IMG/VR virus record: IMGVR_UViG_3300017646_000001
Coordinates: 1 to 64,000 of that record
DNA from: a virus
DNA: 64,000 nt
Strand: one strand, 5' to 3'
The translations under genes and the position numbers were made by a program. The notes below the pieces were generated by a model. The model worked only from the letters and a program-made list of their open reading frames with translations. It had not been told where the DNA came from and searched no databases. Below, piece by piece: positions 5,479-34,649 of the stretch. Positions within the stretch are counted from its first letter, which is position 1. Each line of letters starts with the position of its first letter.

Positions 5479-7137
5479 ATGAGTAAGTATCTCGCCCCTG
5501 GCGTATACGGTAATGTCACCAACCTGAGCCAAATTACGGCGCTCGCCAGTGGCTCTACGGGCGGTATTGTGCTGCAGGCCAATCAGGGCCCGAAGGGCAT
5601 GTACTACGCCACCCAGGTCAAGCGCCTGCTGAATCGGTACGGTAACCCCGACTCGGGACGCGCCAAGGCGCTGTGGGCAGCAATGGCCATGATCAAGGCC
5701 GGCGGTCCGGTCTGGGTGAATAACGTTAGCCACGGTGACGACACCACGGCCTATGTAGCGTTTACGTCCGAAGACGCCACGCTGCAGACTCCGCTGTTTG
5801 ATCCGACCGCTCACGAATTCGCGGAAGGTGAGCTGTTCATCATCTACGCGGCCGGTCCGGGCGAGTTTTATTCGACTAAGGGAGTGCGCGTCAGCTCTGT
5901 AGCCGAAGACGGCAAGACGTTCACCCTACAGGTGGTGGATTCGGCGAACACCAACGTTCCGCTCGAAACCTTCACCGTATCGCTGGATAAGCGTACTACG
6001 CCGGGCGGCACGCAGACGTTCATTGAGAATGTTGTAAACAGCCAAAGCCAATACATTCGCGCCATGGTCAACCCCGAGTTGACCGGCTTGATGAACGGCA
6101 CGATCTCGTACGGCCAGAGCGGTGCGACCCTTACCGGCGTCGTGGTTGACCCTACCCCCGACGTACCGGGAATTAACGACGCCGAATGGGAAGGCATCAT
6201 TCAGGCCATCACTCCCGCCCCCAATGACCTGATTTATCTGTCGGGTGGTACGCTGGGCAGCTTGCTCACCAACGCTGACGTGATCAACGGTTGGGACGAG
6301 ATGCGTAAGGTGAACAAGTATAACGTTAACGTGCTGCTGAACGGCGGTTACGCGACGTTGGAAGTGCATCAGGCCATGATTAGCGTGGCTCGCGAGCGTG
6401 GAGACGCTTGGGCGGTGCTAGACGCGCCACCCGACGTGCGTACTCCCGAAGCGCTGGTGGCGTACCGCAAGACCTTGCCCTACGAACGGTGGGGCTCGCT
6501 CTACGCGCCCGAGTACACTATCTATTCGCCCTACACGGACGAAAACGTGAACGTGCCCGCTTCAGGCGCGGTGGGCGCGGTGACGGCCTACTCCGACTTC
6601 ACCAAGGACGTCTGGTGGGCTCCGGCTGGTCCGAACCGTGGTAAAGTACCCGATGCGATCGGTCTGCCCGTCGAATTCGAGCAAGAAGACATCGAACTGA
6701 TGTACCCCGAATCGGTGAATAATATCGTCAACCAAGACGGTATTGGCATCGCAGTTTGGGGCCAGCGCACCCTGCTCCAAGACGACTCCAGCCTGTGGTC
6801 GGTCAACGTGCACCGCCTGCTCTGCGTGCTGATGAAGAGCATGGCCTCGTACCTCAAGTACAGCCTGTTCGAACAGAACGACGAGATCACGCGCGAGGCC
6901 ATCACGGCTACCCTCAACCAGTTCCTGGAGAAGGTCAAAAACCGGCGCGGCCTGTATCGCTACAAGGTGGTGTGCGACGATTCGAACAACACGCCCCAAG
7001 ATATCGACGAACTGACGCTGAACGTGGACGTCTACCTGCAACCGACGCGTGCTGCCGAATTCATCGCGCTGAACTCGATCCTGACGCGCACCGGGGCCTC
7101 GTTCGAAACCACCACGGGCGTCGAAGCCTCTTTCTAA
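5479..7137 (+). CDS. Tail sheath protein (gp18-like)
   Basis: YLAPGVY start, WWAPAGPNRG, WGQRTL, VNVHRLL, VVCDDSNNTP, LQPTRAAEFI. Confidence 0.97.
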   Translation: MSKYLAPGVYGNVTNLSQITALASGSTGGIVLQANQGPKGMYYATQVKRLLNRYGNPDSGRAKALWAAMAMIKAGGPVWVNNVSHGDDTTAYVAFTSEDATLQTPLFDPTAHEFAEGELFIIYAAGPGEFYSTKGVRVSSVAEDGKTFTLQVVDSANTNVPLETFTVSLDKRTTPGGTQTFIENVVNSQSQYIRAMVNPELTGLMNGTISYGQSGATLTGVVVDPTPDVPGINDAEWEGIIQAITPAPNDLIYLSGGTLGSLLTNADVINGWDEMRKVNKYNVNVLLNGGYATLEVHQAMISVARERGDAWAVLDAPPDVRTPEALVAYRKTLPYERWGSLYAPEYTIYSPYTDENVNVPASGAVGAVTAYSDFTKDVWWAPAGPNRGKVPDAIGLPVEFEQEDIELMYPESVNNIVNQDGIGIAVWGQRTLLQDDSSLWSVNVHRLLCVLMKSMASYLKYSLFEQNDEITREAITATLNQFLEKVKNRRGLYRYKVVCDDSNNTPQDIDELTLNVDVYLQPTRAAEFIALNSILTRTGASFETTTGVEASF

Positions 7138-9470: not shown

Positions 9471-11372
9471 GTGGCCACGGGATTCGAAGTCAAAAAAATA
9501 TTCTCGTCGTTGCTAGGTGAGGAACAAGCTCGCCGCTCGCAAACCGACTCCGAAAAAGCTGATGAAAAAAATCAGCAAAAAGAGTCGATTGAACTGCTTA
9601 GAGAAATTAAGCATAACACCACGGCAGATGACCAGTCCACTCTGGCCCATCAAACCGAAAAGCAGCACGAGGAGTTGGTCCGTATCCTGCGCAAAGGCTT
9701 CAAGTTGGACGAGGCTGGGCAGGACGCTTCCAAGCTGCCGTCAGTGCGACCCGACCAAGACTCGGGCGGTTCATTCGGGTTAGGAGGAATACTAGACAGC
9801 GCGGGTACGTTCATTCTAGGTCCCGCGCTGTACGGTATCGTCAAGAAATTTGGCAGGGGATTGTCCAAGGCCGCGTCCCTTAGCCTGGCTGGGCTGAAGA
9901 AAATTCCAGGCGTGGCCGGCATCATAGAGAAAGCCAGTGCAGGTTTAGCGGCGGGCGGTAGCGTGTTGATGAAGGGTGCGCGCCTGCTAGGTAAACTAGC
10001 GCTCCCAGTTACCGCTATCGTGGGCGCGTTTGATGCCTGGAAAGGCTTTGACTCAGAAAAAGCCATTCAGTTGTTTGGCACCGACACCGTATTATCCAAA
10101 GTAGGATCCGCCGTATCCCATTTGGTGAGTGGTCTATTGTTTAACCTCGTGTCTCCCGAGCAAGTAGCTGAGGGAATGAAGTGGTTAAACAGTGTGGGCG
10201 AAGAAGCGGGCCGTACCGCTATGGCTTTGTTTCAATCGCTCATGAACTCCGTTACGGAAACGCTTACCGAATTAATCGGCGAAGACAACATCAAAGCGAT
10301 TTCTGACACCTTGATGGCCCCGATCCGGTATGTGTCCAAAGCGGCTGAAAAGGTGCTGGAGTATATAGAACAGAAGGTCAAGGAATACTTGCCGGACTGG
10401 GTTGTAGACGGCATAAGCGCTGTGGGAGGCGCAGTACGAGAGGGAGCGGATACAGTATCCGGTTGGGCTACCCGAGCGGGCAGTGCAGTAGGAGAAGCTT
10501 GGGACTCCGCTACTAGCACCGTATCGGGTTGGTTCGGGGGCAATGACGACAAAGACAAGCCCGCTTCTACTCCTACCTCTACCCCTATTGCTGCTACTGG
10601 ATACGGCGGTAGCGCTGCCGCTGTGGGCGCAAAACTGCCAGAGCGCACCGAAGCCGTAATTGAAGCTAAGGCCGCTCAATATGGGTTAGACCCTGCAACC
10701 ATGAAGGCCTACGCTTACATGGAGTCCAGAGGCGACCCTAATGCGGTGTCGCCTACCGGAGCGACCGGCGTATATCAATTCACTAAAGGCACGGCTAAGG
10801 GATACGGTCTCAAAGACCGTACCAACCTAGAAGATAACGTAGACGCCGGTATGCGCCTAGCGTTAGATAACGCTAAGGCCCTGTCTCGACGTTTGGGAAT
10901 TGACGTTAAAGACGTTACCCCTGAGATGCTGTATTTGGCTCACCAACAAGGTGCGGCTGGCGCGGCGGTTATCCTCAAGGCGGCGGCTGAAGGGAAAGAC
11001 ATATCAGATCTGCCTGCCCATATTCGCAGAAACGTGTCGGTCAATTATGGTGGGAAAAGCCGCACCGCTGCTGAGTTTGTGGCGGCTAACTCCGCCAAGA
11101 TTCAACAATATCGGGCCGCGTTTGATCCAGCTTCGGCCCAACAACCCAACGGCGCTGCTCAGCCCACGGCGTTGGCAGCTTCAGAAGAATATAAGCCGGC
11201 TAACCCTGTAGCCCCCGTTCCCGACGTTTCTCCAGAAGGAAATTCGGGCAGGTCAGGCGGCGCTGCCGCTGGTCCGGAGGGATTGTCTTCTCCAGAACTT
11301 TCACTGTCCAGTTTGCCGGCCGTACCCAACGATGAAAAGCTGGCTCTAATTAATATGGGAATCGTAGGATGA
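9471..11372 (+). CDS. Tape measure protein with soluble lytic transglycosylase domain
   Basis: G/A/L-rich helical body; AYMESRGDPNAVSPTGATGVYQF and YLAHQQG SLT motifs. Confidence 0.88.
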   Translation: MATGFEVKKIFSSLLGEEQARRSQTDSEKADEKNQQKESIELLREIKHNTTADDQSTLAHQTEKQHEELVRILRKGFKLDEAGQDASKLPSVRPDQDSGGSFGLGGILDSAGTFILGPALYGIVKKFGRGLSKAASLSLAGLKKIPGVAGIIEKASAGLAAGGSVLMKGARLLGKLALPVTAIVGAFDAWKGFDSEKAIQLFGTDTVLSKVGSAVSHLVSGLLFNLVSPEQVAEGMKWLNSVGEEAGRTAMALFQSLMNSVTETLTELIGEDNIKAISDTLMAPIRYVSKAAEKVLEYIEQKVKEYLPDWVVDGISAVGGAVREGADTVSGWATRAGSAVGEAWDSATSTVSGWFGGNDDKDKPASTPTSTPIAATGYGGSAAAVGAKLPERTEAVIEAKAAQYGLDPATMKAYAYMESRGDPNAVSPTGATGVYQFTKGTAKGYGLKDRTNLEDNVDAGMRLALDNAKALSRRLGIDVKDVTPEMLYLAHQQGAAGAAVILKAAAEGKDISDLPAHIRRNVSVNYGGKSRTAAEFVAANSAKIQQYRAAFDPASAQQPNGAAQPTALAASEEYKPANPVAPVPDVSPEGNSGRSGGAAAGPEGLSSPELSLSSLPAVPNDEKLALINMGIVG

Positions 11373-15405: not shown

Positions 15406-16833
15406 ATGTCCAACGACCTGATTATTTCTGATGTACTGCCCGACGTCAAGCTGAGTACGATTCGTCCTGATTATGCAGACCTGCGCGATCAGATGAACTC
15501 GGTGCTTAGTGTGAGCCCCGTTTGGCGCGATATCATTCCGGCCGCAACTGGCGAAATCCTGATTAAATTTGTGGCCGGCGTAGGGGCATACGGGCAGTAT
15601 ACGATCGAACGTGGAGTGCAGGAATGCTTCCTGGACACGGCCAAGAGTCCCCAGAACATTCTGACCTTAGCTCGATTATTGGGCGTACGCATCAAGCGCA
15701 AGACGCCGGCTCGGGTCAATGTGCGGCTGTCGCGCCAAGAAGTGACGTCCTCCTACACCATCGAGCAGTATTCTGAATTTAACATCCAATCTACTCGGTT
15801 TTACAACCCCGAAACCATCGTGTTTCTGAGTGGTGAAGACCACGTTGATGTAGAGTTGGTAGAAGGTCGAGTCGTAACTCACGACTACATCAGCAACGGT
15901 TCTGCCTTCCAAACCTATTATATCGGCTCTGGATTCACTACGTCCAACGAGCTGGTGCGGGTTACGGTGGACGGCGTGGAATGGGAACGCCTGGAAGGCG
16001 GCATTTGGATGGCCGACAATCCGGTCATGTCCACCGGCCAATACTTCTCGGACTTGACTACCCAGGGTGGATCGGCTCAGATCACGTTTGGCAACGATAC
16101 GGTGGGAGCGATTCCCACACTGGGCTCCGCTATCCGCATTCTGGAATACGTAGTGCGCGGTCCCGCCTCGAACGTGGCTGATTCGGGCCTGAGCGTGGCG
16201 TATTTGTCCGACTCTGCCATTTCGGGCACTACTACTGGTCCCATATACGGTGCAGAGGATGAGCCCTCCTCCGAGTTTTATAAAGCAGTCGGGGCTAAGA
16301 CGGGTCGATCCGACTCCCGGTTCGTGTCGCGTTCGGACTATAACTCCAACCTGGTGTTTTACCCCGGTGTGATAGATTGCCGCGCCGTGGGCGAGTGGGA
16401 AGAAGGTACGCAGTTGGAGTTGATGAATAAAATCAATCTCTATCTACTCACCACTGACGAGTTTCAGTCCGAGACCGACCCGCAGCAGTTCTTAGACTAC
16501 GTTTACGAACGCGGTATGTTGGCCACTCGGCATGAAGTGTTTTATGCCGAAAGCATTGTGGCTAATATAGCGGGGCAGCTGCTAATCGACCCGCGTTACT
16601 CGGTGAGCGACGTGTTGAATCGGGTATATAACGCGCTCATCGCCTTCTTTGCTCCCAAGTACGGTTCACTTAAGCGTCCCGTGTATCGACATGACATCGG
16701 CAAGGTAGTTCAAAGTGTCACGGGCGTACGTCACTTGGTGCTGAACGAACCAACAGTGGATTATTTACCTACCTTTCGGCAATGGGTGCGACTCGGTACC
16801 ATGTCCTTCTCCACTGTATACGCGGAGAACTAA
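15406..16833 (+). CDS. Baseplate wedge protein (gp6/gpJ-like)
   Basis: ECFLDTAKS..NI..LARLLG, ITFGND..GAIP, RFVSRSDY. Confidence 0.9.
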   Translation: MSNDLIISDVLPDVKLSTIRPDYADLRDQMNSVLSVSPVWRDIIPAATGEILIKFVAGVGAYGQYTIERGVQECFLDTAKSPQNILTLARLLGVRIKRKTPARVNVRLSRQEVTSSYTIEQYSEFNIQSTRFYNPETIVFLSGEDHVDVELVEGRVVTHDYISNGSAFQTYYIGSGFTTSNELVRVTVDGVEWERLEGGIWMADNPVMSTGQYFSDLTTQGGSAQITFGNDTVGAIPTLGSAIRILEYVVRGPASNVADSGLSVAYLSDSAISGTTTGPIYGAEDEPSSEFYKAVGAKTGRSDSRFVSRSDYNSNLVFYPGVIDCRAVGEWEEGTQLELMNKINLYLLTTDEFQSETDPQQFLDYVYERGMLATRHEVFYAESIVANIAGQLLIDPRYSVSDVLNRVYNALIAFFAPKYGSLKRPVYRHDIGKVVQSVTGVRHLVLNEPTVDYLPTFRQWVRLGTMSFSTVYAEN

Positions 16834-20866: not shown

Positions 20867-22723
20867 ATGGCCACCAATTCCATACTCAGCGGTCTCGTCA
20901 GCATTCGGGGGACGATGAAAAACCGGCGCGGTACCGCGCTGGAGTGGACTGCGCTCAACCCAGTTTTGGCTAACGCCGAAATCGGGGTGGAGACGGATAC
21001 CCTGTATTTCAAAATCGGCGACGGAGTACGAGACTGGAACTCGCTGCCCTACTCTCAGGGCGACTTCATCGGCGTGATATCGGTAAACGGTCAGCAGGGC
21101 ATTGTGGTGTTGACCGCCGCTGACGTGGGAGCCCTCACACCGGAGGAGCTGGACGAAAAGGTATTCGACTCGGGCGTGCTGGAAAGCCTGGACCCAGACG
21201 CGCCCTACCCGCGCTGGAAGCATCGTCGCACTTTTAACGGCACTGTGGCTACTTCGGCTGACCTGGAACGCGGTGAGCTATACATCAGCTTTCCAGACGG
21301 CGTGTTGTACTCCAAGGACAGCGCGGATAACGTGGTACAGGTAGCGGTGGCTTTCAAAGACTACGCTACCGCTGCACGCGCTGGCCTGGTGAAAATAGAA
21401 AGCGGATCGGGCCTGACCTTGGGCACGGAAGGGGCGCTCTCGGCCAATGTGCGTTCGGTGCAAGGCAAAACGGGCGACGTTACCCTAAACGCGGACGAGA
21501 TCGGCGCGATCTCGGCCCTGTTGCTGGGGCAACCGAACGGGGTAGCCACGCTAGACGGCGCAGGCAAGGTTCCTATTGGTCAGATTCCGAACGGGAACGT
21601 CTACACTGTCAACTCCCAAGCCGGCATGCTGGCGCTGGCTCAAGCCCAGCGCGGGGACATCGCGCGTCGTACTGACAACAACACTAACTGGATCTGCTTA
21701 GGGACCGACAACTCCCAGCTCTCTGGTTGGGCTGATATCTTGTTCCCTACCGTGTCCGTGCCGGTAACTTCGGTGCTGGGCAAGGTAGGTGATGTTACGT
21801 TCGACATCAGCGAAGTACCGAACGTGGCGCAGGTAGCCATTTCCAACCAGTACAGCGACCTGGACGGTTTGCCCGACCTGGACGCGCTCACCGGACCGCC
21901 CGCTACCACCAGTTCGCTGGGTAGCGTGGTAGTGGGCGCGGGGCTAAATATTACAACGGGCGGCACGCTCTCTACCCAAATCCAAACGGTTAACGGTAAG
22001 AACGATCAAAACATTATTCTGACGGCCGAAGACATTGGCGCTTTGGATGCCACCACGATTGGCGCGCAGGGCGGCGTAGCTGGTCCGTTAGACGAAGACC
22101 CCGACGAAGACCCCGACGACCCCATTCTGTCCGACTACCAATACGGTCGGCTGCTGGAAGATCAGCTACCTATGAGCGGTTGGTTCACTGCTGGTACCTG
22201 GAATCCACTAAATGGGGTCACTACCCGCACCATTTCGTTGTCGGGTGGTTATACTGCTACGGTTAGGCTTAAGGACGGTGGCCTACTGCAGCTGGACTGG
22301 AACGACGGAACGGACGAACAAACGCTGGACGTGCCCGCTGATACCGGCGTATATGTGGTGTCTGGTAATCCTTCTGGTTCCACTGTTACTCTAGATGGGG
22401 TCACGGATTGGGGTCCAGGAGATCTGGCCGTAGCTGTAAACGGAGCGTGGCGACGGATTTCAACCCAACCACTAATGGATAGCTGGGTGGACCTTACGTT
22501 AAGCTCTGGAGCAACCGCCCCGCTAAACGGCTTTCCCGAGCATCTGTTGGATTTTACGTCTACAACGGTGTTGGTTCGAGTACAGGATGACGTGGACCCC
22601 GACAAGTGGTATGACGCCTCTGGCGTAGCTACTGTTACGTATGACGAATCCGGCAATTGGTCGCTTACCAACAACGATCCGACCCGCACGCTGAATTTCC
22701 GTTATCGATACGTGAGGCTGTAA
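20867..22723 (+). CDS. Fibre protein with Mtd_N-like N-terminus and VxSVNGxxGxV tail repeats
   Basis: RRGTALEWTALNPVLANAEIGVETDT..FKIGDG...WNSLPY; four V.SV.GK.G.V-type repeats; GVATLDGAGKVP. Confidence 0.85.
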   Translation: MATNSILSGLVSIRGTMKNRRGTALEWTALNPVLANAEIGVETDTLYFKIGDGVRDWNSLPYSQGDFIGVISVNGQQGIVVLTAADVGALTPEELDEKVFDSGVLESLDPDAPYPRWKHRRTFNGTVATSADLERGELYISFPDGVLYSKDSADNVVQVAVAFKDYATAARAGLVKIESGSGLTLGTEGALSANVRSVQGKTGDVTLNADEIGAISALLLGQPNGVATLDGAGKVPIGQIPNGNVYTVNSQAGMLALAQAQRGDIARRTDNNTNWICLGTDNSQLSGWADILFPTVSVPVTSVLGKVGDVTFDISEVPNVAQVAISNQYSDLDGLPDLDALTGPPATTSSLGSVVVGAGLNITTGGTLSTQIQTVNGKNDQNIILTAEDIGALDATTIGAQGGVAGPLDEDPDEDPDDPILSDYQYGRLLEDQLPMSGWFTAGTWNPLNGVTTRTISLSGGYTATVRLKDGGLLQLDWNDGTDEQTLDVPADTGVYVVSGNPSGSTVTLDGVTDWGPGDLAVAVNGAWRRISTQPLMDSWVDLTLSSGATAPLNGFPEHLLDFTSTTVLVRVQDDVDPDKWYDASGVATVTYDESGNWSLTNNDPTRTLNFRYRYVRL

Positions 22724-26034: not shown

Positions 26035-26694
26035 ATGATGCAAATCACCCTGGAACAGCTACAGCGATGCACGGCGGGCATGAGGCCCGCCTTTGACTTA
26101 GAGCAAATCGCAGTATCGGTAAACGAAACCGCTGCTCGATTCGAATTGGACAGCAAAAGCCGACTAGCTCACTTTCTGGCTCAAGTTATCTACGAAACGC
26201 AAAACCTCACCAAGTTCGTGGAAAACCTGTACTACACTACGCCCGAGCGGTTGGTCACGGTGTGGCCCAGCCGCTTCACGATGACGCCGGATAGTGCAGA
26301 TGGTAAACGATACGCGCCTGACTACGTGCGTAATCCCGCTAAGCTGGCCAGCGCAGTGTACGCGGGTCGGTATGGTAACGGCGACGAGGCTTCGGGCGAC
26401 GGTGGGCGGTTCTTAGGTCGTGGTCCGATGCACCTGACATTCCGGGATAACTACGCGCGCTGCAGTCAGTATCTGTATAATAATGACCGTCTGGTGCAGA
26501 ATCCCGAAGAAGTGTCGGACAACATTGAAACCGGCATGCTTACGGCTGGTTGGTTCTTTGCCGTGGAAAAGAAGCTGAATCCGCATGCCGACCGTGGCGA
26601 CCTCGATACGATCACGCTGCGCGTGAACGGTAGTACGCGCACCGTGCCTGAACGCCGCGCTGTACTGACCAAGGTAGTGAGGGCGCTCGGATAA
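26035..26694 (+). CDS. Endolysin, glycoside hydrolase family 19
   Basis: LAHFLAQVIYET, ENLYY, YGNGDEASGDG.RFLGRG..HLTFRDNY. Confidence 0.93.
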   Translation: MMQITLEQLQRCTAGMRPAFDLEQIAVSVNETAARFELDSKSRLAHFLAQVIYETQNLTKFVENLYYTTPERLVTVWPSRFTMTPDSADGKRYAPDYVRNPAKLASAVYAGRYGNGDEASGDGGRFLGRGPMHLTFRDNYARCSQYLYNNDRLVQNPEEVSDNIETGMLTAGWFFAVEKKLNPHADRGDLDTITLRVNGSTRTVPERRAVLTKVVRALG

Positions 26695-27260
26695 TGGCCT
26701 TCCTGGACGACAGCCCGTTCGTACGCATTCAGGGCCAGCTCTCGTTACGCCGCTCCACAGCGGCTGAGTGGGAGTTTGCCAACCCAGTTCTGAAGGATGG
26801 GGAGTTCGGTTATGAACGCGACACTCGCTCGCTCAAGATCGGCGATGGCACGACGCCGTGGAACGAGCTTCCATACGTTAACCCCGGAAACCTCACCGCC
26901 AACATTTACCAGTTGGCCATCAGTATTCCCTACACGCTGGAAGGCGACACCACGCCTTACTACATTAAGCTCAACGAGCGGCTTCGGCTCACGGGAACCG
27001 ACCCGCGACACGTAGTGTCGGCCCGCCCAGGAGGCGCACCACAGGGCGGGGACGTAGAACTGAGCTTACGTCTTAACCAAGTGCACATCGGCGCGCTACG
27101 ATACTTGAACGGTAACCGCACCGGCCAGCTGGTCTTGGATCAAAACATCACTACTTTATTACCGGGTGCGGAGTTGTCCATTGTCGCCCCAACCAACGTA
27201 TACGGCTTAAACGGGTTGGGCATCGTGCTCAGCTTCGCCATTCTTCCCAATCCCGCTTAA
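26694..27260 (+). CDS. Short Mtd_N-domain virion protein
   Basis: RRSTAAEWEFANPVLKDGEFGYERDT..LKIGDGTTPWNELPY. Confidence 0.8.
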   Translation: MAFLDDSPFVRIQGQLSLRRSTAAEWEFANPVLKDGEFGYERDTRSLKIGDGTTPWNELPYVNPGNLTANIYQLAISIPYTLEGDTTPYYIKLNERLRLTGTDPRHVVSARPGGAPQGGDVELSLRLNQVHIGALRYLNGNRTGQLVLDQNITTLLPGAELSIVAPTNVYGLNGLGIVLSFAILPNPA

Positions 27261-27277
27261 TCACAGGAATCTCCACC

Positions 27278-28276
27278 ATGTTGCGCTTTTTCGACAGCTT
27301 CGCTCAATACGCTCCTAAGGGCACGAGCTTCGCCACGATCAACAACATCTTCTCCACCGGGTATATCCTGGAGACGAGCGGCGGTTCTATCGTGTTCAAC
27401 GACGGGTTTGAAACGGACGGTGTGGCGGTGTACCTAGGCCGCACTCCTTCGGGCACGGCACGCATGGAGCGCCGGTTCGAGTCGACCGACGACGTCGTAA
27501 TCATCGGCTACGAGTTCAAGAGCACGATCCGCGAAGCGGTGACGTTTCGCATCCCCGACGTCCTGGACCTGGAGTGGCCCGACAAAATGGGCATCAACGG
27601 CGTGTACGGCGGCGCAATCCCCATTCTGAACACGCCTTACTACGTCGAACTCAAGCTCACCAAGTCGACCAAAGAAGTGGTGATGAAGCTCAATGGGTAC
27701 GATTATCTGACTACGTCGTTGCCCAGCGAAGTTGAAATCCCCGACATTTTGCGCTGCATCTGGGGCTGGGACGCTACGGGAGCAACTGCTCAAATGGCCG
27801 TATCGAACCTATACTTCGCAGACGGTGCGGCAGGCAAATACACCGACTTCATTGGCCCGGTGGCAATCAAGACTGATCGGCCCACTGCTTCGTACGACGA
27901 TCCTCCGACCTGGACGCCGGTTCCGCCCGAAAAGACCAATGTGCAGATTATGAACAATCTGCCCCCGTTGGCCTCCGAATACACTCAAAGCGATCAAGTG
28001 AACTCGCGCGACTACTACACGTCGTCCAACCCCGTGACCGGCGAAGTTCTAGCTGTGGCGGTGTCGTCTCTGGTAGGCAAGACCGACATCGACGACCAAC
28101 GCGTGACGCTCGGCATCGAACACGACGACACCAACCGTGAAGGCGAAGAGATTCCCGTCGCTGTACAGCCCGGCTACATCCAAACCGTGTTCGAGCAAGA
28201 CGCGCTCGAACAAGACTGGACGGCGCAAACCGCGCAGGATGTTGCTTTCGGCATCACCATTCAACCGCGAGCGTAA
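27278..28276 (+). CDS. Virion protein paralogue 1 (lectin-like N-domain plus conserved C-domain)
   Basis: FFDSFAQY start; YYVELK; VLAVAV...WT....VAFGI end; strongly C/G-ending codons. Confidence 0.7.
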   Translation: MLRFFDSFAQYAPKGTSFATINNIFSTGYILETSGGSIVFNDGFETDGVAVYLGRTPSGTARMERRFESTDDVVIIGYEFKSTIREAVTFRIPDVLDLEWPDKMGINGVYGGAIPILNTPYYVELKLTKSTKEVVMKLNGYDYLTTSLPSEVEIPDILRCIWGWDATGATAQMAVSNLYFADGAAGKYTDFIGPVAIKTDRPTASYDDPPTWTPVPPEKTNVQIMNNLPPLASEYTQSDQVNSRDYYTSSNPVTGEVLAVAVSSLVGKTDIDDQRVTLGIEHDDTNREGEEIPVAVQPGYIQTVFEQDALEQDWTAQTAQDVAFGITIQPRA

Positions 28277-28279
28277 GCC

Positions 28280-29527
28280 ATGGCAGTCAAATGGATGGAT
28301 AACTTCGAGGGGTACGAAACTCCCCTTAACGGCAATTTAAACGGAAACGCTTTGCCGTTTCCGTCTGGATTTTTGCAGCGCAATTATCAAATTACCGGCG
28401 GATTTGCAAACGTTGGATCGGCATCTCAGTTCCCAAGAATTACCACGGGCGTGTCCACGGTGCCGGAAGATCGACCATGCTTATACGCTCCGCGAAACCT
28501 ACAAGCGCAATCTATTAACGATTGGCAGATTAGTCGACCACTTCGTAACGTGATTTCCGGCGACACTACTGTATACGTAGGTCACAAAATAGTAGGGTTA
28601 TTGTCTTCCAGCGCGGATGGATACAATACTGCTAACATGGGAGTGGCGTGGGTAGACCCTGTTGGCGGAACTGAGGCCAGTCTGATCTTAGGGATTTACA
28701 TTGTATCCCGCGCGCTAATTCGAGTTGTATATGCTGACTCGGATGGTACATGTCAGCACGTTAGCATCAGTCTATCCGTTCCGATGTCGGGCCAATATGA
28801 CACCATTGAATACGCCTTTCGCAAACGCAGCGAAATATTGGGTGACTACACCAACTTCACAATGTGGGTAAACAATCGCATTGCTTACTCTAGCGATATC
28901 TTTAACAATGTAGGTTCAATAGAAGGCCTACATTGGATGGTAATGGGAAATAAACGGGTGGTTGCTCAGGGCGGCAGCGTTCCAGAAGGGTATGTTTCCT
29001 TAGCAAACAACAATTATCTCACTATGGGATACGGCATCACTGACTTCTATATTTCTAACAACAAGGAAGGCGTAAACGTCGGTCGCATGGGCAAGGTACG
29101 CGTTACTAGTCGCATGCCAAACGCCGACGCCGGGCCCAATCAATTTACGCGTAGCGCAGGTGCAGTCGATATTCCTAGCAACGCGGGCGTGGTCGCGCTA
29201 ATTCCGCCGGATACGAACCGGTATTTGTATGGTGTGGGCGCGGGCGACCAAGACATGTACGGCGCGGCTCCGTTCCCAGCTCTGGGTAGTGAAGCCGTCA
29301 AGGCTGTCATGGTGCGGTTCGTAGGCTCTAAAAACGATCCTACCGGGTTTGATCTCAGCTCCGTGCTACGATTAGGCGAAGATGAGTACGAACAGCCGTT
29401 GACGCCGCTGGCTACCGAGCCCACTTACAGCAACGCAGTGCTGAACTTGAATCCGGCCACCAATCTACCATGGACGCCTACCGAAGCCAATAATACTCAA
29501 TTTGGCGTGAAGTTGGTCGGCGCGTAG
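28280..29527 (+). CDS. Virion protein paralogue 2
   Basis: WMDNFEGY start; VKAVMV...NPATNLPWTPTEANNTQFGV end. Confidence 0.7.
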   Translation: MAVKWMDNFEGYETPLNGNLNGNALPFPSGFLQRNYQITGGFANVGSASQFPRITTGVSTVPEDRPCLYAPRNLQAQSINDWQISRPLRNVISGDTTVYVGHKIVGLLSSSADGYNTANMGVAWVDPVGGTEASLILGIYIVSRALIRVVYADSDGTCQHVSISLSVPMSGQYDTIEYAFRKRSEILGDYTNFTMWVNNRIAYSSDIFNNVGSIEGLHWMVMGNKRVVAQGGSVPEGYVSLANNNYLTMGYGITDFYISNNKEGVNVGRMGKVRVTSRMPNADAGPNQFTRSAGAVDIPSNAGVVALIPPDTNRYLYGVGAGDQDMYGAAPFPALGSEAVKAVMVRFVGSKNDPTGFDLSSVLRLGEDEYEQPLTPLATEPTYSNAVLNLNPATNLPWTPTEANNTQFGVKLVGA

Positions 29528-29536
29528 GGGTACAGC

Positions 29537-30676
29537 ATGCCGATGGAAATTCTGTACGCTGAAGGGTTTAGCGGTGACGTTGGGCTAGTGTCCGCGCAAA
29601 GCGCCAGCACTAATAGCTTTTATGCGCGCACTGGTGGATTACGGTATGGGTTATGGCCGGCTGATGCCATAATATATGATCCTGTGGAGGCCCGGCCAGG
29701 CGGATCAGGTTATTATCTCAACATCGTAGGTTCATCGGGTAATACTAATATTCTAGCCATTGATAATACTACTGTGTACCGACCTACCGGTATAGGACTT
29801 AGAAGTTTGGCTAAAAACGGGCGTCTTTCTTTATCTTGGGCTGGCAAAGGCGCGCCTGTCTCTAACATCAACGGTATGGGATTTCGTCGGTTACCTAACA
29901 GCGGTACGACATATTTTGGCGTAACGATTAGCAGAAGTAATTTAGATTTATCGGTGATTTGCGGAAACGTGTATAATACCGGATACACAGTGGACCCTGC
30001 CGTCTGGAAGCATTATGAGATAATTTGGGAGGCGGATGATCCTTTAGCTGGGGATGGAGTAGGCAAAATTTACGTCGTGGCGGATGAAGAGCTGGTATAT
30101 ACGGGGGCCGCAACCCTACCGAATGTTACTGTAGAGCATGGGTTTTCCTATATCCGTACCAGTAGTTCTGGTAACACTAGCACTTCGGTAGGTCCGGCAC
30201 AAACACAAATTTCAGACCTAATCATTGCATGTGGCGGTAATCCTGGCGATCGCATCGGCCCTGCCTACGTGTTAGCGGCTACACCTACCGAAGTTCTAGG
30301 AGACGGGTGGAGCCCACAACCCACAGGAAACCTGTTGGGCAATGTGAATAAGAATACGGGACTAGATTTTGGGACGTATAATCGAACGGAACAGTACGAT
30401 AAGCGCCTGTCATTAAACTCTGGCCTGGAACTAGCCCCTGATGCTGCAGTTTTAGCGGTGCGAGTCCTGCAAAGCACTCAATCCACGTCCACTATAGATC
30501 GCACTGCAATTGATGTGAATGAAGAAACCGTGCACGAGTATGTGCACGCCAATGCTAATACTCCCGTACTATCGGTCACACCGTGGTTGTTTACGGATCC
30601 TACTGACGACCAACCTTGGACGCCTGAGAAAATCGAAAGCTTGACGTTTGGCGTCACCAAAAAGCAGGCGGCCTGA
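29537..30676 (+). CDS. Virion protein paralogue 3
   Basis: YAEGFSG start; WKHYEIIWE LamG-like strand; VLAVRV...DPTDDQPWT....LTFGV end. Confidence 0.7.
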   Translation: MPMEILYAEGFSGDVGLVSAQSASTNSFYARTGGLRYGLWPADAIIYDPVEARPGGSGYYLNIVGSSGNTNILAIDNTTVYRPTGIGLRSLAKNGRLSLSWAGKGAPVSNINGMGFRRLPNSGTTYFGVTISRSNLDLSVICGNVYNTGYTVDPAVWKHYEIIWEADDPLAGDGVGKIYVVADEELVYTGAATLPNVTVEHGFSYIRTSSSGNTSTSVGPAQTQISDLIIACGGNPGDRIGPAYVLAATPTEVLGDGWSPQPTGNLLGNVNKNTGLDFGTYNRTEQYDKRLSLNSGLELAPDAAVLAVRVLQSTQSTSTIDRTAIDVNEETVHEYVHANANTPVLSVTPWLFTDPTDDQPWTPEKIESLTFGVTKKQAA

Positions 30677-30678
30677 CC

Positions 30679-32295
30679 ATGGCGATGACCGTCTTAGCAG
30701 CGGCTGGTTGGGAAAACGAGTCGGAAGCGGGGCTCATTCTGCCCGATTCTTTTGGCGGAAATCGTTTCCAAATAATCTCTGATCCCGCTATTGTACGCCG
30801 ACCTGGATCTCAATGCATAACCAATTTAGATGCTTATGCTTCCGGCAGCGAGACCGTGGGTCGTTTACTAAATATCAATAAAAGCACTTCGGAATTCGTA
30901 AACGAGTATCATAGATTTAGTATTAGCTACAATATTCGGGGCAACCCAACGCGTAGCGGTGATCGCATTGGAGGGCCGGGATTGTATCCTTCTTTGCCTG
31001 CAGGGACGGTTGATAGTAACTTTCAATGCGTTTTTGGTCATTGTGTGTTTGTAAGTTTAAGCTTTATAGGGGCTTACAACGGCGCTGCCAATTATTTTGA
31101 TATTACCGCTACAAACAACCCTTACTTTCCAGATGCACCAAGTGACGACGTCTGGCGTCATGTCGAAATATTGTGGGAACAAACGTCTGGGCTGACTGGC
31201 AAGATTATGCTGTTCGTCGACGGAGTGCTTCAAGCTTCGCGCGATACGTGTACATTAGCGGACTACCCTAGGATTAATTTTCATGCCTATCGGTATGTTG
31301 GCGGAAGCGGGAATTTTTATTATCGGGGAAAGTTTGCGCCGTACATAGATGACGTCATCTTAGCTGTGGGCGGGGCGACAGGTGAACGCATGGGCATAAG
31401 CTATGTCTCGGCCGCTCCGCTCATCGCGGATATTAACACGGGATCGTTTACGGGTTCGGGCGGAGAAACCTCCGATTTGTATACCCTAGTCGACAAATTA
31501 GCCACCCCTAGCGTAGAAGAATATATAGAAACAGAAGTAACCGAAGACTCTGTTGTGTTTGGTCCGGTTGGTAATATACCTACGAACGCTATTATCCGCG
31601 CAGTTAATCTAACTGTAGAAGTAGCGTCTAATGGTGACCCTGCTGTAGCCCAATTAAAACTCAATGGTGTAAATTCACTGTCCACTAATTTGAATGAAGA
31701 TGGCACCCCTCGTTATGCTGAAACGTCGTGGAATAATGTAGACCCTGCTAATGGCCAGAATTGGAGTGCTGCAAAGCTGTCCGCATTGAGTGCTGCTATA
31801 AACAACACTTTGGATGCTGCTCCTATTCGGCACTTTGTCGGGCGCTACATGCGCCTAGCCATTTTGGCTTCAGGTAACAATAATACTTATCCTAATTTGA
31901 TTGAGGTTATCGCCAAATCTTACGGCGGTGATAGTGACGTATGTTTACAGCCAGGCACTACGGCATCAGCTAGTTCTACGTACGATAGTACCTACAGCGC
32001 TCAAGGCCCTATTAACGGCATAATTGAAAACGTAAATGTATCTACGAGTCGTCCAGATACTTGGTCCCCTACTGGCGCTAATATAGCTAGCGCGGATCGA
32101 TCCTGCTGGTGGCAAGTAGATTTCGGCTATCGTAAACAGATTGCAGAAATATACCTAGTAGCGAGGCAAAGCTTAGATAGGGTGCCAACCAGTGTGGCTA
32201 TTATGTATAGTGATGACGGAGAAAACTGGGCGGACGCTCTGGTAGCCTCTGGATTGACTTATGCTTCGGACACCACCCCCACTAGGATATACTAA
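30679..32295 (+). CDS. Virion protein paralogue 4 with extra C-terminal discoidin (F5/8 type C)-like domain
   Basis: WRHVEILWE...LFVDGVLQ; IRAVNL...DPANGQNWS; WWQVDFG...IMYSDDGENW. Confidence 0.7.
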   Translation: MAMTVLAAAGWENESEAGLILPDSFGGNRFQIISDPAIVRRPGSQCITNLDAYASGSETVGRLLNINKSTSEFVNEYHRFSISYNIRGNPTRSGDRIGGPGLYPSLPAGTVDSNFQCVFGHCVFVSLSFIGAYNGAANYFDITATNNPYFPDAPSDDVWRHVEILWEQTSGLTGKIMLFVDGVLQASRDTCTLADYPRINFHAYRYVGGSGNFYYRGKFAPYIDDVILAVGGATGERMGISYVSAAPLIADINTGSFTGSGGETSDLYTLVDKLATPSVEEYIETEVTEDSVVFGPVGNIPTNAIIRAVNLTVEVASNGDPAVAQLKLNGVNSLSTNLNEDGTPRYAETSWNNVDPANGQNWSAAKLSALSAAINNTLDAAPIRHFVGRYMRLAILASGNNNTYPNLIEVIAKSYGGDSDVCLQPGTTASASSTYDSTYSAQGPINGIIENVNVSTSRPDTWSPTGANIASADRSCWWQVDFGYRKQIAEIYLVARQSLDRVPTSVAIMYSDDGENWADALVASGLTYASDTTPTRIY

Positions 32296-33941
32296 TGCCG
32301 TTTAAGGTCATTTCCTACCTACCACAAGTTGTTTGGTCCGAGATTCTGCTCGACAAGACGGATGTAGCTCAGTTAATGGCCCAGGTGGTGGCGGGTTCGA
32401 CTGGTCCTGTGCCGGCTACTGCCGTGCGGGCGGCTCAGCTAGCAGTTCAAGTGGTGACCAGTTCTAGCACCGTACTGCCTAACCCGCCAACCAAGTTTTA
32501 TCAACAGCAGCAGTTCGCTCTCATACAAACCGAGCCGCCAGAATACACAGCCGTTCATCAGATAGAACACCTGGCGCTATGGGAAGACCCTATAATACCT
32601 GGTACTAACGCGTTCCAGGTGCAACAGCTGGCTCTGGCGGTTACTGAACCGCCCATTCCTAACATTCTGAACCAGGTTAGCCAGTTAGCCTTATATAATG
32701 AATTTCCGTTTGGCAACACCGAGCTCTATCAGCAGTCCACACTAGCGCTCATACTAATTGAGCCCCCGCCACTGATGGAGTTTCGTCAGCTATCCAGCGT
32801 GCGAAGTGCGGCGGTAGCCAAAGACTCTCCTAACCCCAACTATATTCTGTCGCATCGCACTCAACTTTCCGCGATTAAACAGCTGGCAGAATCTGCAGTT
32901 AAAGCCGATCCCGAAGAGATTCAGTCGCACACCGCTTTGTTGATGTTAGCAATACAGCGTGTAAAACCCGTTGTGATGCTAAACCCTGACTCTATTTTTG
33001 GTAGTGTGATTCAGCAGTCCGTCGTGCGTCAAGCCGTTCGAACCAAAGCCAAGTCTAACCCGGAAGACGTAATAGCGGCCTCACATTTGTATCAAAGCAC
33101 GCGCATGTCGGCGATAGGGTTGTTAAAATCCGATCCCAATAACGTGTTTTCTACCCAGGCATTGTACTTACAAGCACGTTTATTGCTCGCGTCTTCGGCC
33201 AAAGCGAATCCTAATTCAGTCATTTCAGCGCGTTCATTGCGGTCGGTTTCCAAGCAGGTAGTCAGGCCTCAAGTTTTATCCGACCCAGAATTCATTAGCT
33301 CACCTACTAAGCTGCTACATCAAGCGCTTCAGGTGGTGATTTCCACGGATTTCCGCAATCCTTCGGGTATTAATTCTAATACCAATCATTTTTACACAGC
33401 CAAGTTTTTAGCTGAGTCTAAAAACATGGTTGATCCGTCTGAAATTATTTCATACTCACAACTCCGGTATACGGCCAAGTTGAGCCCCGTGTCTAAGCCC
33501 ATGCTGGACCCTGACTCTGTGGTTTCTCAGCGTCGTTTGTATTCAGCACGCAAGATGTTTGTTCGGCCTGTCGAAATGCCAGATCCGGCTCAAACAGTAT
33601 CCCCCCAACAGGCGCGCGCAAACAATCGGCACGTTGCCGTAGCGCTAAATATGTTAGACCCGGGTCGAATCCTAAGCCACCGTCGCGTGATGTCCATGCT
33701 ACGTCAAATCTCGTCGAATAAGACGATGCCCGACCCTAATCAGGTGGTGGAAGGGCTGCAGCACTGGAGCGTGGGGCGTTGCACGGCTATTGCTAAGGAA
33801 ATGCGAAACCCAGCTAGCATTATTCCGTTCACTACTCACCACGTTGCTCGCCGGCTTATAGCCGAAAGTAAGATTATGCCTAACCCCAACGTAATGGGAG
33901 CGTCTAACATTCCCGTTACCATAATCAACATCTTGCGCTAA
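32295..33941 (+). CDS. Tandem-repeat virion protein (short Q-rich repeats, then 25-aa repeats)
   Basis: 15 [DN]P motifs spaced 25 aa apart, preceded by QxxQVV and QxxxLAL repeats. Confidence 0.75.
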   Translation: MPFKVISYLPQVVWSEILLDKTDVAQLMAQVVAGSTGPVPATAVRAAQLAVQVVTSSSTVLPNPPTKFYQQQQFALIQTEPPEYTAVHQIEHLALWEDPIIPGTNAFQVQQLALAVTEPPIPNILNQVSQLALYNEFPFGNTELYQQSTLALILIEPPPLMEFRQLSSVRSAAVAKDSPNPNYILSHRTQLSAIKQLAESAVKADPEEIQSHTALLMLAIQRVKPVVMLNPDSIFGSVIQQSVVRQAVRTKAKSNPEDVIAASHLYQSTRMSAIGLLKSDPNNVFSTQALYLQARLLLASSAKANPNSVISARSLRSVSKQVVRPQVLSDPEFISSPTKLLHQALQVVISTDFRNPSGINSNTNHFYTAKFLAESKNMVDPSEIISYSQLRYTAKLSPVSKPMLDPDSVVSQRRLYSARKMFVRPVEMPDPAQTVSPQQARANNRHVAVALNMLDPGRILSHRRVMSMLRQISSNKTMPDPNQVVEGLQHWSVGRCTAIAKEMRNPASIIPFTTHHVARRLIAESKIMPNPNVMGASNIPVTIINILR

Positions 33942-33943
33942 AT

Positions 33944-34366
33944 ATGCTTACGTGGTTTAAGTTTGCCTGGGACAATCGAGCCAACATTGCACTCGCCCTG
34001 CTTTTGTTGGCTGTAGGCGTGCAAACCTACCGTTTGGAATCTTCTCAGGAAGACTACACTAGGCTGGAGACTCAACACAATCAGGTTAAGCTAGACCTCA
34101 AAACCGCTAAGGAAGCTAACCAGATCTTAGCTACGGCGGTACGTCAAAACAACGAGGCCATTATAGAGCTATCTCGGCAACGACAAAGCCTGGATACGGC
34201 GCTTCTATTTGCACAAGACCAGAACCGCGCCGTGGAATCGCAACTAGCCACTACTCTGAAGCGTATTCAGGATGCTGATGTATCCGACAACGCGGAAGAA
34301 GCCATCCAATGGAGCTCGGAGATGAATAATGAATTGGCGAATGCTTGGAACCGCGCTGCTCGTTAG
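33944..34366 (+). CDS. i-spanin (Rz-like)
   Basis: N-terminal TM helix and long coiled coil; overlaps a lipoprotein gene. Confidence 0.8.
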   Translation: MLTWFKFAWDNRANIALALLLLAVGVQTYRLESSQEDYTRLETQHNQVKLDLKTAKEANQILATAVRQNNEAIIELSRQRQSLDTALLFAQDQNRAVESQLATTLKRIQDADVSDNAEEAIQWSSEMNNELANAWNRAAR

Positions 34367-34649
34367 TGTACTAACCGGGTGTAGCACTGCGTCTGAACCG
34401 CACACGGTGTTCCAACCCACTGAAGTGATAGTAGCCGAAGTCTCCGCTGCGAAAGAAATCCAGCTTCCTGCTCGACCCGTTTTGGCCATAGTGCCCGCTA
34501 CTGAAAAGCGGGACAGTCAAAAGGTTAAGATCATACAGTCCAACCTACAGCGTGTCTCCTCCTATGCACAACAGCTAGAGAACCTTATCTTGGAGTATAA
34601 CAAAGCTATACGGCGCAATGCCGCGTCATCTCCAGGAACACAGGAATAA
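34329..34649 (+). CDS. o-spanin (Rz1-like lipoprotein)
   Basis: Signal peptide with lipobox LTGC; LPARP.L and YAQQLE segments. Confidence 0.82.
   Translation: MNWRMLGTALLVSVLTGCSTASEPHTVFQPTEVIVAEVSAAKEIQLPARPVLAIVPATEKRDSQKVKIIQSNLQRVSSYAQQLENLILEYNKAIRRNAASSPGTQE

Follow-up and report, generated by a model that had tools for sequence, protein, structure and literature searches.

The window analysed here is a stretch of 64,000 nucleotides (nt), positions 1 to 64,000 of IMG/VR virus record IMGVR_UViG_3300017646_000001, and makes up the initial 64 kb of a virus record that is complete at 117,656 bp and carries direct terminal repeats. It contains a cassette of six genes on the plus strand, which encode a fibre protein of 188 amino acids (aa) designated p0 (26694..27260), four paralogous proteins of 332, 415, 379 and 538 aa designated p1 (27278..28276), p2 (28280..29527), p3 (29537..30676) and p4 (30679..32295), and a 548-aa protein with strictly periodic sequence motifs, the repeat protein (32295..33941). 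The genes for p1 to p4 and the repeat protein are co-directional and closely packed, with intergenic distances of 3, 9 and 2 nt followed by a 1-nt overlap. A first-pass annotation of this DNA, made from the letters alone, had started the system at 27278 and had thus begun it one gene late, since the same gene order in relatives places 26694-27260 within the cassette, which consists of six genes and not five.

In agreement with that annotation, p1 to p4 are four tandem paralogues. All four match phrog_2448 (E 2.6e-49, 2.5e-22, 2.5e-7 and 8e-5 for p1 to p4, respectively), p1 over its full length and p2, p3 and p4 over only the C-terminal 150-200 or so positions, and a genome-wide search with this family returned exactly these 4 proteins. 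Likewise, a hidden Markov model (HMM) of the conserved C-domain, built from 13 family members, recognized 4/4 (E 1e-53, 2e-25, 9e-14 and 8e-6) and located the domain at residues ~266-412 of p2, ~238-374 of p3 and, as a weak match, 237-371 of p4. The motifs that had been ascribed to the whole set are less uniform than initially described. The [DE]xF-type start occurs in three of the four proteins but is replaced by AAGW in p4, and of the C-domain motifs only an 'AV' pair is invariant in all four, whereas [DN]P....W[TS] is present in three (p1 lacks the [DN]P) and FG[VI] in three (it is missing from p4). The C-domain itself is found in every paralogue but is not always C-terminal, as p4 carries a domain of the F5/8 type C (discoidin) family (PF00754) behind it, at residues 429-522 (nt 31963-32244; 42.4 bits against a cut-off of 28.2). 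Apart from this domain and a sub-threshold Collar match, both in p4, no Pfam match was obtained for p1 to p4 at E <= 0.1; none of the four reached the gathering threshold of Laminin_G_3 (PF13385), and searches of NCBIfam and of PDB sequences gave no match for p1, p2 or p3. In relatives of these proteins Laminin_G_3 occurs as an extra C-terminal domain (L011:5380-6858 and L010:8560-10257, both metagenomic loci), and longer paralogues add Laminin_G_3, DUF285 or F5/8C after the conserved C-domain. Since the extra domains sit behind it, the conserved part looks like an attachment module and the ends like variable binders. The N-domains of p2, p3 and p4, of which that of p2 is larger and divergent, barely resemble p1 in sequence (E 0.016, 2.5 and 0.024 with an HMM of the p1-type N-domain), and tblastn gave zero matches for p3 among 50,697 phage records and none for p4 in cultured phages.

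The codon usage of p1 is indeed similar to that of the sheath and tube genes, as had been noticed earlier, with a G+C content at third codon positions (GC3) of 0.735 in p1, 0.759 in the sheath gene and 0.821 in the tube gene. Elsewhere in the cassette GC3 was 0.533 in p2, 0.449 in p3, 0.422 in p4 and 0.53 in the repeat gene, and from p1 to p4 it declines in steps. This pattern could reflect high expression of p1, or an expression graded along the paralogues, but it would fit equally well if p3 and p4, both without tblastn matches in cultured phages, had been acquired later from a foreign source. The ribosome-binding site that had been singled out for p1 is not distinctive, AGGA-like sites being present also 5' of the repeat gene and of p3.

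Residues 1-182 of p1 were modelled with AlphaFold2 (AF2) as a confident jelly roll, in which the predicted local distance difference test score (pLDDT) was mostly 80-95; the model as a whole, based on an alignment of 12 sequences only, had a mean pLDDT of 76.6 and a predicted template modelling score (pTM) of 0.77. In VIA this jelly roll matched concanavalin A-like (ConA-like) domains, such as those of sialidase BT_1020 (5mqs_A; Z 18.0, root mean square deviation 2.4, 167 aligned residues) and Cip1 (3zyp_A; Z 17.6) and, below them, GH131, legume lectins, calreticulin and GH16, and Foldseek agreed on the fold (E 3.7e-7 and weaker). The LamG/ConA-like domain proposed for all four paralogues is therefore seen in p1 by model, Foldseek and VIA, while for p2, p3 and p4 the same fold is a prediction. 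When the whole of p1 was compared with a viral model library, it matched uncharacterised proteins of phages JS26, Kokobel1 and AchV4 and, more weakly, proteins of Sphingomonas phage Kharn, Vibrio phage VpV262 and a Roseovarius phage; the fold searches were dominated by residues 1-198. The C-domain of p1 (residues ~188-307) was modelled with few strands and less well (pLDDT 61-80 over residues 190-307) and is not, with any confidence, the complete sandwich which the first-pass annotation had named as an argument against its own proposal, and the last 25 residues, 308-332 (nt 28199-28276), were the sole part that AF2 left unplaced (pLDDT < 50). Within this tail both alignments show an invariant G325, and 12 close relatives also an invariant W314, and the paralogues retain a conserved C-terminal FG strand of their own. 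The combination of conservation with a position that could not be modelled suggests that the p1 tail may serve as an interface element between subunits. As a group, p1 to p4 are supported as a multi-lectin-type virion module.

The periodicity of the repeat protein proved to be even stricter than first reported. As described before, 15 [DN]P motifs occur at residues 180, 205 and so on to 530, and the 14 successive gaps between them are all exactly 25 residues; these 14 pairs at lag 25 compare with a maximum of 3 in 20,000 shuffles of the sequence. The corresponding 15 units of exactly 25 aa span residues 169-543 and are followed by five residues and the stop codon (residues 169-548, plus strand, 32799..33941). 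Counted from the [DN]P, they share the consensus D-P-x-x-[IV]-x-S-x3-L-[YR]-x3-[RK]-x-V-V-x4-[KM]-x. The preceding part of the protein (residues 1-168, plus strand, 32295..32798) holds eight short cores spaced 19 or 22 aa, namely the three QVV cores already recognized (positions 11, 30 and 52) and five [FL]AL cores, each followed by E..PP or E[DF]P, whose positions (74, 93, 112, 131 and 150) are exactly 19 apart rather than 18-21 aa as had been estimated. The earlier division into three repeat classes holds for the linkers, which have three lengths (19, 22 and 25), but not for the cores, because QVV is also found inside the 25-aa array (at 321, 346 and 483) and every 25-aa unit has a core of the type [RK]-Q-hydrophobic-hydrophobic in the same place. 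Given this common core, we read the protein as what appear to be 23 copies of one QVV/LAL-type core joined by linkers of 19, 22 or 25, and not as three unrelated classes. The core-to-core spacings of only 19, 22 and 25 correspond to steps of three residues.

On average, two 25-aa units share only 22% identity. Recent tandem duplication as the source of the array was considered and rejected, as TRF detected 0 arrays at a minimum score of 30. Since no DNA-level repeat is present and unit identity is this low, the array is old, and selection maintains its length. A second candidate, that the 25-aa units mimic the C-terminal tail of the paralogues ([DN]P....W[TS]...FG), was likewise rejected: profile-profile scores between 55 units and the full-length tails were all negative, and the best of them (-3.2, at shift 8) was reached by 37 of 2000 column shuffles. 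In composition the protein is rich in Ser, Leu, Ala, Val, Pro and Gln, with 2% Gly and 8.4% Pro.

Neither of two structure predictions gave the repeat protein a fold of its own. The AF2 model, from 6 sequences, had a pLDDT of 27.6 and a pTM of 0.15, and the model in the ESM Atlas was also poor (pLDDT 0.51, pTM 0.40). The autonomous solenoid that the first-pass annotation had listed as the other outcome contrary to its idea was accordingly not seen, and, the alignment being as shallow as 6 sequences, an obligate oligomeric solenoid is compatible with this result; no Pfam repeat family matched the protein at E <= 0.1. In the low-confidence AF2 model the only secondary structure within the 25-aa units was helix, at residues 185-200 and 206-221 and in shorter stretches, and short strands were placed at 110-114 and 148-152, on two of the LAL cores. 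The hydrophobic columns of the 25-aa units follow the DP with a heptad-like 3-4-3-4 spacing, which together with the modelled helix suggests that each unit might form an amphipathic helix of ~16 residues plus a Pro-containing linker. Only the eight short N-terminal cores, with their one-faced L-A-L-x-hydrophobic pattern, look strand-like. Homologues of the repeat protein are hard to find by sequence: tblastn against the 50,697 phage records gave none, phmmer against 1.84 billion representatives gave 4 matches (best E 1.2e-8), a profile of those 4 retrieved nothing from a 5.8-billion set, and there was no match to a PDB sequence or to NCBIfam.

At the other end of the cassette, residues 18-54 of p0 match Mtd_N (PF18454; 44.6 bits against a cut-off of 26.3), and the protein belongs to PHROG tail-fibre families. 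Its C-terminal domain of ~115 aa is common to the gene preceding the paralogues in every related cassette, and the alignment and HMM of this domain comprised 11 equivalents, the shortest (123 aa) being truncated by the end of its contig and the longest having 826 aa. In some relatives (loci L009:322-2802 and L014:3112-7425) a long fibre protein of 611-826 aa that ends in this ~115-aa domain stands before the first paralogue, and the second of these loci has two such genes consecutively. Another Mtd_N protein, of 618 aa, is encoded in the main baseplate/fibre region of the window (20867-22723) and was not among the matches to the HMM of the p0-type C-terminal domain (E <= 0.01). The phage therefore possesses at least two fibre systems with an Mtd_N N-terminus.

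Related cassettes are widespread among cultured phages. Full-length homologues of p1 (29-30% identity) were found in 161 cultured-phage records, mainly from phages of Salmonella, Proteus, Providencia, Escherichia and Serratia. Chi gp36 has homologues in 160 records, with counts near-identical to those of p1 in the five commonest host genera. In phage Siskin, gp31 (a DUF2793 'tail fiber protein') is followed by gp32-35, three of which belong to phrog_2448 and one to its distant relative phrog_10924, then by gp36 (731 aa, phrog_7226) and by the lysis genes. The order is the same in AchV4 (gp24, gp25-27 and the 578-aa gp28) and in pEp_SNUABM_08 (gp30, gp31-35, of which 5/5 match the C-domain HMM, and the 706-aa gp36). 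The N-termini of the gp36/gp28 proteins consist of short cores (of GEAL and CEAL types in Chi and AQFAQVL in AchV4), after which [YF]PDP units of 25-26 aa begin. Siskin gp36 and AchV4 gp28 both match phrog_7226; the window repeat protein matched no PHROG family at E <= 0.01 and hence did not reach this one, and a single BLASTP comparison with AchV4 gp28 gave E 0.015. Its equivalence to the phrog_7226 proteins rests on synteny and shared architecture, because it too is the last gene after the paralogues and has short N-terminal cores followed by a Pro-containing array of ~25-aa units. All three families, phrog_2448, phrog_10924 and phrog_7226, are annotated as 'unknown function' in PHROG.

More distant versions of the cassette differ in size. 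In the Pseudomonas myophage QdP_Psa3 (CDS0054-0052) a p0 equivalent and a single paralogue are accompanied by a 333-aa protein with approximately eight short cores, and Brevundimonas phage Leszy (00080-00110) combines a p0 equivalent with two paralogues and with a 449-aa protein in which a Gly-rich domain precedes some ten cores of 17 aa. No relatives were found in the viral contig collection (searched with p1 and with our alignment A2) or in the genome contig collection, and a search of metagenome contigs yielded 6 loci. Among these, L013 combines three genes with a 446-aa repeat protein that comprises ~14 25-aa units. At L011 a pair of clear paralogues is succeeded by four more genes whose N-termini begin alike and by a repeat protein of 419 aa or more, and L010 encodes p0 and at least three genes. 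The repeat proteins of L013 and the window can be aligned along 450 residues without loss of register (E 4e-22, 22% identity), and the 25-aa consensus is common to 55 units, taken from 6 proteins whose identity to the window protein is 19-25%. Where both were compared in one set of relatives, p1 is conserved at 43-58% identity and the repeat protein at only 22-25%, showing that the latter diverges much faster. In every cassette seen the repeat gene is the last of the fibre cluster, and cassettes carry anything between one lectin-type gene and five or more. The window phage is a myovirus, whose sheath and baseplate wedge genes lie at 5479-7137 (phrog_23, E 2e-75) and 15406-16833, respectively; its closest cultured sheath, that of Xanthomonas phage phiXF1, is just 34% identical. 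The cassette occurs in, and moves between, siphoviruses and myoviruses.

The size of the repeat protein varies together with the number of paralogues. In the complete cassettes, 1, 2, 2, 3, 4, 4 and 5 paralogues are accompanied by repeat proteins of 333, 449, 446, 578, 548, 731 and 706 aa, respectively (rho 0.87, n=7, permutation p 0.011, a statistic that ignores phylogeny and covers about four independent lineages). Changes in length may also occur over short distances. Siskin gp36 (L001:12247-14442) includes a 22-aa segment that is duplicated exactly and in tandem, and its tblastn matches in many Chi-like records extend over 2127 nt as compared with 2193 nt in Siskin, a difference of 66 nt or 22 codons. 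The duplication and these unaligned spans suggest that the number of units may vary between close relatives.

The reading that we favour, with a probability of roughly 45%, is that the six genes form a mobile accessory-fibre or host-adhesion cassette in which the periodic protein acts as a partner-dependent extended backbone or organiser. It is favoured because the same gene order recurs in distant phages with a common C-terminal domain in p0 and a ConA-like fold in p1, because p4 and relatives carry extra domains of carbohydrate-binding type, because AchV4 virions contain the equivalents of p0, p1 and p2, and because the 25-aa period is kept in divergent proteins and no autonomous fold is predicted for the window protein. 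In such a cassette p0 would be a small fibre protein whose Mtd_N-type N-terminus plugs into the tail and anchors the whole, while its conserved C-terminal domain would be the constant partner of the downstream products. The subunits p1 to p4, with a ConA-like jelly roll, a shared C-domain of ~140 aa and the extra discoidin domain in p4, would together give the virion several different glycan-binding heads. The last gene would provide a non-globular periodic chain as backbone or organiser of the same appendage, which may become ordered only with partners, either further copies of the chain or the conserved parts of p0 and of p1 to p4 or both, and whose number of units would scale the size of the assembly. 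We infer the binding of glycans, the physical association of the six products and whatever role the periodic protein plays; a link between the chain and the subunits is favoured by their co-occurrence (161 and 160 records), by the way in which the length of the chain tracks the number of paralogues and by its apparently varying unit number.

Several observations weigh against this reading. To our knowledge, a composition with 2% Gly and 8.4% Pro would be unusual for the known beta-structured fibre shafts. Phage Lu11 has a strong phrog_2448 member (E 6e-82) without a comparable periodic open reading frame, its top periodic frames being collagen-like. A fusion of paralogue and repeat protein, sought as a Rosetta-stone link, was absent among 8000 long candidates, which is a weak test, and the low confidence of the AF2 models may partly reflect the shallow alignments (12 sequences for p1 and 6 for the repeat protein). 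Further points come from published virion analyses. In AchV4 virions gp24, gp25 and gp26, the equivalents of p0, p1 and p2, were identified by liquid chromatography-tandem mass spectrometry (LC-MS/MS), and the part of the report available to us lists neither gp28, the homologue of the repeat protein, nor gp27, among 21 structural proteins that were, with two exceptions (one of them a 7-kDa protein), all found by this method; AchV4_0028 is described there as hypothetical, without domains and with 15 homologues (PMC7996906). Similarly, mass spectrometry of pEp_SNUABM_08 virions gave, in the sections available, 12 proteins including gp30 and none of gp31-36 (PMC8310351). For Chi-type phages, immunogold labelling is cited second-hand as assigning the long fibre to YSD1_29/BH2P (PMC12264135, as far as its accessible text goes), and a cryo-electron microscopy (cryo-EM) structure of the Chi tail tip, again known second-hand and from part of the citing paper, is said to show no side appendages (PMC12724387).

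The proteomic data would suit a different role, in which the periodic protein is not part of the virion but an assembly factor, that is, a large chaperone or transient scaffold for p0 and the lectin subunits that is then released, like the tail-fibre assembly proteins encoded at the ends of fibre operons. Its place at the end of the fibre cluster in all cassettes seen, its disordered-like monomer model, its faster divergence as compared with p1 and its non-detection in AchV4 and pEp_SNUABM_08 virions, so far as the available text of those studies shows, would all be expected of such a factor. However, with 333-731 aa these proteins are far above the sizes that we associate with fibre chaperones, a transient chaperone would hardly account for a period kept at exactly 25 aa through 15 units, and the proteomic negatives come from two studies only, one of them shallow. 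We therefore consider an assembly factor to be somewhat unlikely, while giving it more weight than any of the further alternatives discussed below.

The first-pass annotation had proposed a more specific mechanism, a virion-resident ruler in which each repeat donates a beta-strand to the C-domain of a subunit, so that class-specific repeats fix the order of the subunits and their numbers at 15:5:3. Several of our results would suit strand donation: the repeat protein has exact periods and no autonomous fold, its short N-terminal cores resemble one-faced strands, confidence in the p1 model is lowest for the C-domain, with the invariant tail unplaced, the length of the repeat protein tracks the number of paralogues, and p1 has the codon usage of abundant structural genes. 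On the other hand, the 15 units of 25 aa look helix-like, with a 3-4-3-4 hydrophobic spacing and helix as the only secondary structure modelled in them, and as such would be poor donors of the pilus type, and the paralogues keep their own conserved C-terminal FG strand. Moreover, a common core in all 'classes' leaves class-specific recognition without a basis in sequence, and paralogues and classes do not correspond in number, with 4 to 3 in the window, 6 jelly-roll genes to 2 classes in L011 and 1 paralogue to approximately eight repeats in QdP_Psa3. The repeat homologue also escaped detection in 2/2 proteomes, as far as these are accessible, of which that of AchV4 did contain subunits. Taken together, these points make the strand-donation ruler the least probable of the readings considered here.

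Two further possibilities concern the long fibre of Chi and its relatives. Phages with the cassette were isolated on Salmonella, Proteus, Providencia, Serratia, Cronobacter, Achromobacter, Erwinia, Pseudomonas and Brevundimonas, genera that are typically flagellated. The virion of Chi bears a single thin and curly fibre of ~220 nm that wraps flagella, described in a paper that says nothing on the cassette genes (PMC4342425), and the distal part of Chi-type fibres is reported, in the available portion of the source, to be too flexible to resolve (PMC12264135). The periodic protein might be a nebulin-like ruler and backbone of a long thin appendage, in which each QVV-core unit docks one partner, drawn either from the lectin-type subunits or from those of a host filament (the flagellum, for example), and the number of units sets length and valency; in Chi-like phages the cassette, and not the J-like protein alone, would then build the ~220-nm flagellum-wrapping fibre. 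Siskin gp36 has ~31 units when counted by eye, so that a 220-nm fibre would correspond to roughly 7 nm per unit. We regard this reading as unlikely.

Marginally less likely again is a receptor-binding thread, whose period would match a host polymer (the flagellar lattice, O-antigen or a pilus) while the lectins act separately at the cell surface. The flagellated hosts, the curly flagellum-wrapping fibre (PMC4342425) and its distal part, reported as too flexible to resolve (PMC12264135), would be in line with a thread. In combining exact periodicity with the absence of a monomer fold, the protein is also reminiscent of nebulin and other rulers that bind filaments. Against it stand the placement of the YSD1 fibre with YSD1_29 by immunogold, second-hand and from a partial source (PMC12264135), the non-detection of the periodic protein in the virion proteomes as far as these are available, and the fact that a match of lengths is numerology. 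In addition, adsorption of AchV4 survived treatment of the cells with proteinase K, which was the authors' assay for a protein as opposed to a carbohydrate receptor in the part of the paper available to us (PMC7996906). Chi-like phages are described, in the accessible text of another study, as requiring lipopolysaccharide (LPS) as well as flagella (PMC6631126).

The cassette lies amid lysis genes. A GH19-type endolysin gene (26035..26694, plus strand; phrog_181 E 4e-54, PF00182) is located directly 5' of p0, and two small overlapping plus-strand genes downstream (33944-34366 and 34329-34649) are likely to encode spanins, as judged by a weak Rz-like match of the second gene (phrog_1267, E 0.009) and a lipobox-like LTGC in translation; the lysis genes of the window are thus split by the cassette (26035-34649). 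In Siskin and AchV4 the cassette directly precedes the lysis genes, in AchV4 the holin, and at the metagenomic locus L013 a first cassette is followed by holin-like genes, the endolysin and a second p0-plus-paralogue set. The tape-measure-like gene of the window (9471-11372) is situated away from the cassette.

The closest counterparts among known phages are the Chi-like siphophages (Casjensviridae), which share with the window a fibre protein with the common C-terminal domain, 3-5 paralogues of the phrog_2448 type and a terminal repeat protein beside lysis genes, and in this repeat protein short N-terminal cores before an array of ~25-aa units of the [YF]PDP type. In contrast to these phages, the window phage is a myovirus, its p1 is 29-30% identical to theirs, its p3, p4 and repeat protein lack tblastn matches in cultured phages, and its periods are exact (25 and 19), whereas the arrays of Chi and AchV4 are irregular (25-26). 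The branched complexes of Vi01/CBA120-like and RaK2-like phages, in which one protein is the docking platform for several tailspikes, likewise comprise several binding proteins encoded in a row and presumably displayed on one appendage. Their platform, however, is made of globular N-terminal spike modules without a periodic chain, and no sequence or fold similarity between them and the window cassette was found. Chaperone-usher pili share the idea of a donated strand, which the one-sided hydrophobic LAL-type cores recall, but there each subunit donates its own N-terminal extension and a separate multi-strand chain is absent; the window, in turn, has no chaperone or usher, and its 25-aa units are helix-like. 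A literature search for donor strands in phage tail fibres yielded one paper, on an archaeal virus, which in the part available is apparently unrelated. Nebulin on actin and phage tape-measure proteins resemble the repeat protein in their strict residue period, low identity between repeats, lack of a monomer fold and length variation by whole units, yet the window protein has no sequence relation to them. No description of phrog_2448-type or gp36-type proteins was found in the literature searched, a search outside which the primary Chi cryo-EM and YSD1 fibre papers lie. Consequently, a phage receptor-binding cluster with lectin-type proteins is of a known kind, while this cassette, and above all its periodic protein, is undescribed in the searched literature.

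The cassette is present in Chi, one of the oldest model flagellotropic phages, and in ~160 sequenced relatives, although its families are still listed as of unknown function. Exact periods of 19 and 25 residues at ~22% identity imply a strong structural constraint on the periodic protein. Even in a role limited to assembly, it would stand out among such factors by its size and regularity. Were the heads organised by the periodic chain, or the fibre formed by it, this would represent a new route to multivalent, length-tunable phage adhesins and would offer a direct handle on the way in which Chi-like phages bind to flagella and LPS.

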